The notes below the pieces were generated by a model, which ran no database searches, had not been told where the DNA came from, and saw only the letters and a list, made by a program, of their open reading frames with translations. A stretch of DNA of 32,000 nucleotides from Candidatus Altimarinota bacterium (GTDB taxonomy: Bacteria; Patescibacteriota; Gracilibacteria; UBA1369), in contig JBAZYK010000001.1 in NCBI GenBank assembly GCA_041659405.1, forward strand, positions 150,001-182,000. Direction: 5' to 3'. Numbering within the stretch: position 1 is the first letter of the stretch; each line of letters opens with the position of its first letter. Position numbers and translations under genes: made by a program. Shown here piece after piece: positions 2,202 through 4,718 of this stretch.

Positions 2202-2285
2202 TGTTCGAGGAGATGGCAGAATCCCCTTCGGACACAGGGCCCCTACCCCGGATGTCCTCAGTGAATTCTGCCACCTCCTCGAACA
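2202..2285 (+). repeat. Structured intergenic element E1 (21-bp stem closing a conserved 42-nt GC-rich core)
   Basis: The arms 2202-2222 and 2265-2285 pair at 20 of 21 positions. The core 2223-2264 (CCCCTTCGGACACAGGGCCCCTACCCCGGATGTCCTCAGTGA) is identical to 4659-4700. The element lies between the atpA stop and the atpG start. Confidence 0.85.
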
Positions 2286-2305
2286 AAAATATTTATTTTT
2301 ATTAA

Positions 2306-3160
2306 ATGGCTTCTCTCAGAGATATTAAATTAAGAATTCGGTCGGTTAAATCGACTCAGAAGATTACCAAGGCTATGGAAATGATTGCGGCTTCTAAAAT
2401 GAAGCGTGCTCAGAACCAGGCCTTAAAAGGTCGTCCTTATTTGGGTAAACTTACGCAAATTATTTCCAATCTGGTGTATTTGAGTGATCCAAAACTTTCG
2501 CATCCTCTGCTTAAAAGCAAGAAAAGTGTTAAGAATGTTGCTTACATTTTTATTACCGGAAATCGTGGACTTTGCGGCGCTTTTAATACCAATGTGATCC
2601 GCAAAATGTTCGAGATTTTGAAAGAAAAAAATCAGACTCAAGAAACCGTTATCACTGTTGGTAAAAAGGGGCGCCAGGCTATGGAACGCATTGGTAAAGC
2701 GGTTTTGGCTGATTTTGAAACGATGCCCGATAAAATTTCTTATCTTGATTCACTTGGTATCAGCCGTGTGGTTGTTGATGATTTTTTGAATGGAAAATTG
2801 GATGAAGTTTATATGGTTTACAACCATTTTTACTCAACAATAAGCCAAAAACCTATTGTGCAAAGGTTGTTGCCGGTGACTTTGGAAAAGAGCGCGGCAA
2901 GTTCAGAAACCAAACGTTCATATATTTTTGAGCCTAAAAAAGAACTGCTTTTGGATGAACTTTTGCATCGTTATATTGAAACAATGGTTTATCAGACTTT
3001 GCTTGAATCCGTGGCTTCAGAACAAAGCGCGCGCATGATGGCAATGAGACAGGCATCGGACAACGCTACGGAAATTGTCGACAATTTAACTTTGAACTAC
3101 AACAAAGCTCGTCAGGCCAAGATTACGACTCAAATCCTGGAAGTGGTGGCAGGAAGTTAG
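2306..3160 (+). CDS. atpG: ATP synthase F1 subunit gamma
   Basis: A 284-aa ORF. The N-terminus MASLRDIKLRIRSVKSTQKITKAMEMIAASKMKRAQ and the C-terminus ARQAKITTQILEVVAG are typical gamma termini. Confidence 0.95.
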   Translation: MASLRDIKLRIRSVKSTQKITKAMEMIAASKMKRAQNQALKGRPYLGKLTQIISNLVYLSDPKLSHPLLKSKKSVKNVAYIFITGNRGLCGAFNTNVIRKMFEILKEKNQTQETVITVGKKGRQAMERIGKAVLADFETMPDKISYLDSLGISRVVVDDFLNGKLDEVYMVYNHFYSTISQKPIVQRLLPVTLEKSAASSETKRSYIFEPKKELLLDELLHRYIETMVYQTLLESVASEQSARMMAMRQASDNATEIVDNLTLNYNKARQAKITTQILEVVAGS

Positions 3161-3215
3161 AAACAGAATCAGGCTTTCCCTATCAATAAAATAATTAATA
3201 TTTAAAAAAATAACT

Positions 3216-4619
3216 ATGGCAAAAGGAAAAATTACTCAGGTTATTGGTCCCGTTGTGGACTTTGCCTTTCCGGCAGAGGAACTCCCAAGACTTTTGGAAA
3301 CTGTTGAAGTTATGAATGGCAAAAACAAGCTGGTGGTAGAAATCCAACAGCAACTTGGTGATGGCCAGGTTCGTGGCGTTGCGATGGATTCCACCGATGG
3401 ACTTGTTCGCGGACAGGAAGCCAATTCCACCGGAAAATCAATTACAGTTCCGGTTGGTGAAAAAACGCTTGGTCGCTTGCTGAACGTGCTTGGAGATCCA
3501 ATTGATGCACTTGGTCCGGTTGATTCCAAGGACCGCTGGGAAATTCATCGTCCCGCTCCATCTTTTGCCGATCAATCTTCTCAAACGGAAATTTTTGAAA
3601 CAGGTTTGAAAGTTGTTGATCTTATTTGTCCTTTTGCCAAAGGAGGTAAAGTTGGTTTGTTTGGAGGAGCCGGAGTAGGTAAAACAGTGCTTATTCAAGA
3701 GCTTATTCGTAACATTGCCAAGGAACATGGTGGTTACTCCGTGTTTGCCGGTGTAGGTGAACGTACCCGTGAAGGTAATGATCTTTGGAATGAAATGAAA
3801 GATTCCGGAGTTATCGACAAAACCGCCTTAGTGTTTGGTCAGATGAACGAACCACCTGGTGCTCGTTTACGCGTGGCTTTGACCGGTCTTACAATTGCTG
3901 AATATTTCCGTGATGTGGAAAAACGCGATGTGTTGCTGTTCGTTGATAATATTTTCCGTTTCTCTCAGGCCGGTTCAGAAGTTTCCGCTTTGCTTGGACG
4001 TATGCCATCCGCGGTAGGTTATCAACCAACTTTGGCTACAGAAATGGGTGCGCTTCAGGAACGTATTACTTCAACAAAGGATGGTTCAATTACATCTGTA
4101 CAAGCGGTTTATGTGCCTGCGGATGATCTTACCGATCCGGCTCCTGCGACAACTTTCTCCCATTTGGATTCCACTGTAGTATTAAGTCGTGCGCTTTCTG
4201 AACAGGGTATTTATCCTGCGGTTGATCCACTTGATTCCACTTCCCGTCAGCTTGATCCAAACGTGGTTGGAAAAGAGCATTATAATACTTCCCGTGAAGT
4301 TCAACGTGTATTGCAACGTTATAAAGATTTACAGGATATTATTGCGATTTTGGGTATGGATGAACTTTCCGAGGCGGATAAAACTTTGGTAACTCGCGCC
4401 CGCAAAATTCAACGTTTCTTGTCTCAACCTTTCTATGTTGCTGAAACATTTACAAACATTCCGGGTCAATATGTAAAATTGGCTGATACCATCCGTGGCT
4501 TCCAGGAAATTTTGGCCGGTAAGCATGATGATTTAACGGAACAGGATTTCTATCTGGTTGGAACGATTGAACAGGCCCGAGAAAAACATGAAAAGGCTTT
4601 GGCTGCTGCTAAGAAATAA
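3216..4619 (+). CDS. atpD: ATP synthase F1 subunit beta
   Basis: A 467-aa ORF with Walker A GGAGVGKT plus the blocks [35 protein letters not shown] and [23 protein letters not shown]. Confidence 0.98.
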
Positions 4620-4640
4620 TTTTTCGAGGGATTTCTCCAC

Positions 4641-4718
4641 GGGAAGTGATGTGGAATTCCCCTTCGGACACAGGGCCCCTACCCCGGATGTCCTCAGTGA
4701 AATTCCCCATCACTTCCC
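4641..4718 (+). repeat. Structured intergenic element E2 (18-bp stem closing the same 42-nt core)
   Basis: The arms 4641-4658 and 4701-4718 pair at 17 of 18 positions. The core 4659-4700 is identical to the E1 core. The element lies between the atpD stop and the atpC start. Confidence 0.85.

Follow-up and report, generated by a model that had tools for sequence, protein, structure and literature searches.

A hairpin element with an invariant centre and covarying arms occurs twice in the ATP synthase operon of a bacterium from the Candidate Phyla Radiation

We analysed a stretch of 32,000 nucleotides (the window) from contig JBAZYK010000001.1 of a Candidatus Altimarinota bacterium. The window contains a run of F-type ATP synthase genes, atpH, atpA, atpG, atpD, and atpC, and the spacers downstream of atpA and atpD each contain a hairpin element that we call E1 and E2, respectively. 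The ATP synthase complex has the composition alpha3-beta3-gamma-epsilon, with alpha and beta as the three-copy subunits and delta as another one-copy subunit. A first-pass annotation of this DNA, made from the letters alone, had placed the two elements after atpA and atpD and before atpG and atpC, and the identities of these genes were confirmed. Those homologues of AtpG that bear names come from Candidatus Peregrinibacteria and Gracilibacteria, which places the bacterium in the Candidate Phyla Radiation. The features of the locus are as follows.

91-645, atpH, upstream of atpA
674-2182, plus strand, atpA (F1 alpha), directly upstream of E1
2183-2305, plus strand, atpA-atpG spacer of 123 nt that houses E1
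2202-2285, E1, hairpin element of 84 nt in the atpA-atpG spacer, better-folding strand minus (antisense to atp)
2222-2265, first copy of an identical 44-nt block, inside E1
2225-2234, minus strand, 3' half of the conserved module in E1, UGUCCGAAGG
2253-2262, minus strand, 5' half of the conserved module in E1, ACUGAGGACA, which gives a tandem G·A loop and a 5-bp GGACA helix
2306-3160, plus strand, atpG (F1 gamma), downstream of E1
3216-4619, plus strand, atpD (F1 beta), directly upstream of E2
4620-4808, plus strand, atpD-atpC spacer of 189 nt that houses E2
4641-4718, E2, hairpin element of 78 nt in the atpD-atpC spacer, better-folding strand minus, in the same orientation as E1
4658-4701, second copy of the identical 44-nt block, inside E2
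4689-4698 and 4661-4670, halves of the conserved module in E2
4809-5225, plus strand, atpC (F1 epsilon), downstream of E2

The core of 42 nt reported in the first-pass annotation has exactly two occurrences, 2223-2264 and 4659-4700, each on the plus strand, and none would be expected from shuffled sequence. The identical block in fact extends over 44 nt. The outer arms match their own reverse complements with one mismatch each, at 20 of 21 positions in E1 and 17 of 18 in E2, as had been described; with the paired part of the core included, they span 2202-2234 and 2253-2285 in E1 and 4641-4670 and 4689-4718 in E2. The window has no other long GC-rich hairpins. The stem sequences do differ between the copies as the annotation said, but they are related: when E1 and E2 are aligned without gaps, approximately half of the outer-stem pairs are the same, and eight pairs have changed on both sides and still pair. 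The two copies together pair in 95.8% of alignment cells, compared with 36-60% when the partner is slid. Judged from this alignment, the arms are homologous and have diverged with compensation, and the centre is wholly unchanged. We found no further match to either arm in the window, so the arms were not copied from nearby DNA.

The heptamer TTCGAGG, which had been noted on the 5' side of both copies, is indeed shared: the E1 arm TGTTCGAGGAGAT is similar to the upstream flank of E2 TTTTCGAGGGAT. In E2 the heptamer lies at 4623-4629, one position before the 4624-4630 first given, and the flank that carries it has no complementary partner downstream. This likeness may be the remnant of a longer E2 stem or may have arisen by chance. 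The bases that flank the elements are ggtg and aaaa for E1 and ccac and tgaa for E2. The atpD-atpC spacer also contains approximately 110 nt of extra DNA outside the hairpin, of which approximately 90 nt lie downstream of E2 at 4719-4808. This downstream DNA, which may belong to the inserted unit, has no counterpart in the relatives described below. An exact AT-rich match of 16 nt joins 2287-2302, just downstream of E1, to 12142-12157 in a spacer between minus-strand genes; this is probably a low-complexity match due to chance.

Both elements are predicted to fold better on the strand antisense to the operon. The minimum free energy of the RNA is -61.5 kcal/mol for E1 and -56.7 kcal/mol for E2 on the minus strand, versus -46.6 and -42.7 kcal/mol on the plus strand, which is the mRNA strand. 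Relative to shuffled sequence this corresponds to z-scores of -9.6 (E1) and -5.4 (E2) for the minus strand and -6.8 (E1) and -3.4 (E2) for the plus strand. DNA energy parameters gave the same asymmetry. The minus strand folds better because four positions that form G·U pairs on it are A·C mismatches on the plus strand. The minus strand is predicted to fold as an unbranched rod, which lacks a three-way junction. A long outer stem at the base is followed, towards the tip, by an A·G mismatch, 2 bp, the tandem G·A / A·G in a symmetric 2x2 loop, the GGACA/UGUCC helix, a bulge of UC, and finally a helix of 6 bp capped by a loop of 4 nt. On neither strand was a site resembling a terminator or a promoter called at E1 or E2, and the plus-strand tails that follow the hairpins (AAAAATATTT and TGAAGATTGA) contain no U-run. 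We therefore rejected intrinsic termination, with no U-run after either hairpin, and agree with the original remark that these are not ordinary terminators.

We compared the operon with those of seven relatives, whose AtpG is 93-72% identical. The element was absent from all of them, and covariance models found nothing in these loci. The relative closest in AtpG (L005, 93%) has an atpA-atpG spacer of 14 nt in a locus that ends before the atpD-atpC spacer. At 88% AtpG, L001 has spacers of 28 nt (atpA-atpG) and 27 nt (atpD-atpC), with L002 and L003 arranged as L001, and L086 has an atpA-atpG spacer of about 15 nt, with atpD-atpC outside the locus. The corresponding spacers are 9 and 22 nt in L087 (AtpG 80%) and 24 and 12 nt in L006 (AtpG 72%). 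Thus, the atpA-atpG spacer is 9-28 nt long in five relatives and the atpD-atpC spacer 12-27 nt in three. L004 (AtpG 78%) is exceptional with spacers of 85 nt (atpA-atpG) and 148 nt (atpD-atpC), still without the element. The spacers in the window are 4 to 15 times longer than those of the relatives.

Because these relatives lack the element, E1 and E2 appear to have been gained in this lineage after its split from the relative with 93% AtpG. Eight compensated pair changes alongside no change in 44 adjacent bases make it implausible that the two copies diverged in place since that split. The sequences suggest instead that a diversified family most likely supplied E1 and E2 from separate source copies. 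As far as these comparisons reach, the behaviour of the element is that of a small mobile or horizontally spread element and not that of a conserved regulator.

Two further observations concern the operons of the relatives. In L004 a gene encoding a 128-aa protein with 23S_rRNA_IVP / bAvd-like domains (6873-7259) is inserted between atpG and atpD, which is another lineage-specific insertion into the same operon. In L087 atpD is called as two overlapping genes encoding 167 and 306 aa (4084-5476), reflecting a frameshift, a pseudogene, or an assembly error.

The same strain was present in two independent assemblies, with two loci from ENA ERZ27249449 (L088 and L090) and one from Logan SRR6484324 (L089). 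All three are 99.99-100% identical to the window, and L088 contains both elements unchanged. The Logan contig begins at window position 4672 and so breaks inside the core of E2, as expected where a repeat is longer than the word length of the assembler. Together, the window and its flanks cover approximately 47 kb of this genome, in which we found no third copy.

Two covariance models (R1 and R2), a kind of search that the first-pass annotation had proposed, were run over about 1.3 Mb of loci, those of the relatives included, and returned nothing further. BLAST of E1 against plasmids and phages gave noise only. Rfam 15 had no match in the window at the gathering threshold; at E <= 10 only microRNA-precursor models appeared, far below threshold. 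We also scanned 185,579 species genomes, and viral contigs, with a pattern of two anchors, ACTGAGGACA-N(12-24)-TGTCCGAAGG. This gave 7 matches in genomes and 18 in viral sequences. All except one look like coding sequence or weak structures and were set aside. A looser pattern combining arm and module gave no match in viral contigs.

The remaining match is a clean hairpin of 85 nt at 811-895 of locus L094 (JAFZXA010000110.1), from a metagenome-assembled genome of a rumen Treponema sp. (RGIG8175). The hairpin begins at the stop codon of clpX and lies between convergent genes. It is laid out as an arm of 23 nt, one half of the module (10 nt), 18 nt, the other half of the module (10 nt), and an arm of 24 nt, compared with 23, 10, 18, 10, and 23 in E1, and it ends in TGTT...AACA as E1 does. 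Its arms have GGAA / TTCCAC in common with E2, and its outer stem contains a second tandem G·A loop. The favoured strand is the same as in E1 and E2 (-41.5 vs -34 kcal/mol). When the three sequences were aligned, 91% of cells paired, 14 pairs changed on both sides, and the covariation score was reached by none of 500 shuffles. By a rough estimate, well under 0.01 hairpins of this kind with three non-canonical positions in register would be expected by chance in the collection. From its sequence and predicted fold, the Treponema hairpin is a probable homologue of E1 and E2. Rfam had no match at this copy. Two relatives of this Treponema, with ClpX 94% and 95% identical, have ordinary terminator hairpins in spacers of 71 nt and 38 nt and no element; because of this, the element appears to be sporadic in Treponema too.

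In the way it would work, the element is most like ERIC, Correia, or REP elements located within operons. The small palindromic intergenic insertions ERIC / IRU of enterobacteria and Correia / NEMIS of Neisseria resemble it in that they vary between close relatives and are co-transcribed as long stem-loops with an orientation-dependent effect on mRNA processing or stability (PMC2229807). They differ in having conserved terminal inverted repeats, TA target duplications, lengths of 100-160 bp, and tens to hundreds of copies per genus, whereas E1 and E2 have a conserved centre and varying arms, two known copies, and a nearest relative in another phylum. A classical MITE (a miniature transposable element with inverted repeats) of the Correia or ERIC type was rejected: the arms are only about half identical compared with a centre that is 100% identical, and there is no flanking direct repeat. 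MITEs also vary in presence between close relatives and occur in several copies per genome; here, seven relatives lack the element, but just two copies are known in the 47 kb surveyed. REP / BIME sequences, such as the malE-malF REP, are likewise GC-rich palindromes in operons, where they shield upstream mRNA from 3' exonucleases and skew expression (PMC5927463, PMC3479197). They are 20-40 nt long, as opposed to 78-85 nt here, are highly repeated, and have a conserved GTAG-type head and a RAYT gene alongside. Neither a RAYT or other HUH gene nor an integrase gene was seen in the 47 kb. In E1 and E2 the tetranucleotide GTAG lies in the apical loop, and the Treponema copy lacks it; assignment to REP was rejected.

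Hairpins of other kinds share part of the design. The intercistronic hairpins of Rhodobacter puf and other protective 3' structures are stable, lack a U-tract, and lie between genes needed in different amounts, and they represent the mechanism that we propose for the effect on the mRNA; these are conserved features of their operons, whereas no relative examined has E1 or E2. An integron attC site is an imperfect hairpin, 57-141 nt long, directly behind the stop codon of a gene, and it has one active strand and a conserved structure and extrahelical bases rather than a conserved sequence. E1 and E2 differ from attC in that their ends (TGTTCGAG...CTCGAACA) place GTT at the 5' side and AAC at the 3' side, the opposite of RYYYAAC ... 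GTTRRRY, and in that no integrase is nearby and the flanking genes belong to a core operon and not to cassettes. We also rejected a kink-turn, since the tandem G·A / A·G lies in a symmetric 2x2 loop and the 3-nt bulge is missing, and SECIS, SRP RNA, and Y RNA on sequence or structure or for want of an Rfam match.

The reading that we favour, at a probability of roughly 55%, is that E1 and E2 are recent copies of a small non-autonomous palindromic insertion element of about 84 nt, broadly of the REP / ERIC / Correia kind. Of the alternatives raised in the first-pass annotation, a small mobile structured repeat fits best. The element would have entered the atpA-atpG and atpD-atpC spacers recently in a Peregrinibacteria-like lineage. 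Its centre, a helix with the tandem G·A internal loop and the A·G mismatch (ACUGAGGACA / UGUCCGAAGG on the better-folding strand), would be constrained in sequence, and the long closing arms would be free to vary as long as they stay complementary. The fixed strand preference and fixed mismatches suggest that what is recognised may be a folded single strand, either DNA or RNA.

Both copies are presumably co-transcribed in the atp mRNA in the orientation of the weaker hairpin, which would still amount to about -43 to -47 kcal/mol. Transcription termination is not expected from hairpins that lack a U-tract. The effect of hairpins in the mRNA would most likely be passive: they would block 3'-to-5' exonucleases or offer a site for RNase III. 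In addition, spacers that have grown to 123 and 189 nt, from about 10-30 nt, should uncouple the translation of gamma and epsilon from that of the genes upstream. Co-transcription is known for repeats of this kind, which are cut by RNase III or alter mRNA stability, depending on orientation (PMC2229807), and in E. coli the stoichiometry of operons is reshaped by protective 3' structures, among them the malEFG REP hairpin (PMC5927463). The effect here would be tolerated, or slightly beneficial, since it works in favour of the subunits needed in three copies. The fit to subunit stoichiometry may thus be why both insertions were tolerated; we do not claim selection for that effect.

Several points weigh against an insertion element. 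The known copies number just two, share one operon and one orientation, and occupy equivalent positions, and approximately 41 kb of this genome's other DNA contain none. We saw no gene for a transposase, a reverse transcriptase, or a recombinase in the 47 kb, and E1 and E2 have neither a target-site duplication nor a conserved terminal inverted repeat. Exact scans, with a 42-mer for genomes, a 22-mer for metagenomes, and a 28-mer for viral contigs, found no other copy in collections that contain few close relatives; in the metagenome collection the best AtpG match was 72%, so that it holds almost no close relatives. The link to Treponema is a single locus, found with a pattern that fixes 20 of its bases, and the evidence for a wider family thus comes from one extra locus.

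An unlikely reading, and the strongest of the rivals, is the one put forward in the first-pass annotation, in which the hairpins are a dedicated intercistronic regulator, favoured by selection as a means of stabilising or processing the atp mRNA and thereby of producing an excess of alpha and beta relative to gamma and epsilon. The elements are stable hairpins without a U-tract, are placed exactly after both genes for three-copy subunits in the same orientation, and have no other copy in 47 kb, and both malEFG and other protective 3' structures provide precedent (PMC5927463). Part of this proposal stands in that hairpins must form in the atp mRNA and a passive effect on stability or coupling is plausible. 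As a device for tuning stoichiometry it is poorly supported and fails the check that the first-pass annotation itself had set, namely occurrence in relatives. No relative examined carries the element, including the one with 93% AtpG; the fold of the mRNA strand is weaker than that of the antisense strand, with four G·U pairs turned into A·C; and the probable homologue is in an unrelated context after clpX. In addition, the gene for delta, another one-copy subunit, is on the upstream side of E1 along with atpA.

A more far-reaching version of the insertion reading, to which we give no more credence than to the regulator, combines the three sequences. According to this, E1, E2, and the Treponema hairpin would represent an undescribed family of rods of about 84 nt in more than one phylum, in which a 20-nt non-canonical module (tandem G·A and A·G by the GGACA helix) on a fixed strand docks a nuclease, recombinase, or RNA-binding protein that spreads the element, and the two copies here would have been kept because they contribute to setting alpha/beta against gamma/epsilon output.

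Somewhat less probable again is a single-stranded DNA hairpin moved by a strand-specific enzyme, either an HUH REP-associated transposase or a tyrosine recombinase as on attC, that recognises the mismatched module and not the arms. Structure is kept where arm sequence is not, and the non-canonical positions (the G·A/A·G loop, the A·G mismatch, and the 2-nt bulge) do not vary. All three copies favour the same strand, with DNA energy parameters too, and such an enzyme would be consistent with the lack of a target-site duplication and with a position just after stop codons. Against this, the ends read 5'-GTT...AAC-3', the reverse of attC core sites, GTAG is confined to the apical loop and is not in the Treponema copy, and the 47 kb contain no integrase or HUH gene.

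It is also conceivable, at a distinctly lower probability, that the minus strand is the source of the functional product, which would be either a small antisense RNA or a hairpin that halts antisense transcription entering the atp operon. The fold is better on that strand, where G·U pairs form along with the tandem G·A loop; in Treponema the corresponding strand is the sense strand of the upstream gene. However, no minus-strand promoter-like or terminator-like site was called near either copy, no U-run follows either hairpin on that strand, and the relatives lack the elements. Least probable by far is a self-cleaving or otherwise catalytic small RNA, which had been the other alternative in the first-pass annotation and is superficially suggested by an invariant centre in which CUGA...GAA and the tandem G·A beside a helix resemble a hammerhead core; the fold is an unbranched rod without a three-way junction, CUGA abuts the helix without NGA, CUGANGA and GAAA are out of register with it, and Rfam gave no family at gathering score and only generic microRNA-precursor hairpins at E <= 10.

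The window has other features outside the operon. Convergent on the atp operon are four large minus-strand genes at 5334-15350 that encode 1405, 831, 535, and 528 aa and have no Pfam or NCBIfam match; a weak TrbL_3 match is on record for the 831-aa product, and a similar giant gene is at the same place in two of the relatives (L004 and L087). An AT-rich inverted repeat (TGTAATATTACGTAA... / ...TGTAATATTACA) at 16275-16366 lies in a 700-nt spacer between divergent genes at 15467-16021 (minus strand) and 16737-17888 (plus strand). Paralogous genes at 26884-27936 and 28772-29914, with DUF1246 and DUF1297 domains, adjoin purH-like and FGAM synthase-like genes. We take this pair of domains to mark a PurP-like ATP-grasp enzyme of archaeal-type purine synthesis.

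On the insertion reading, E1 and E2 would place in a genome of the Candidate Phyla Radiation a small palindromic element for which we found no matching described family. Its design would be unusual, with a conserved centre and covarying arms, the opposite of classical MITEs, and with a probable relative in Spirochaetota. The finding reveals no conserved regulatory principle of ATP synthase operons. The close relatives that lack the element would provide a natural before/after comparison for the effect of hairpins on mRNA decay and translational coupling in an essential operon of uneven stoichiometry.

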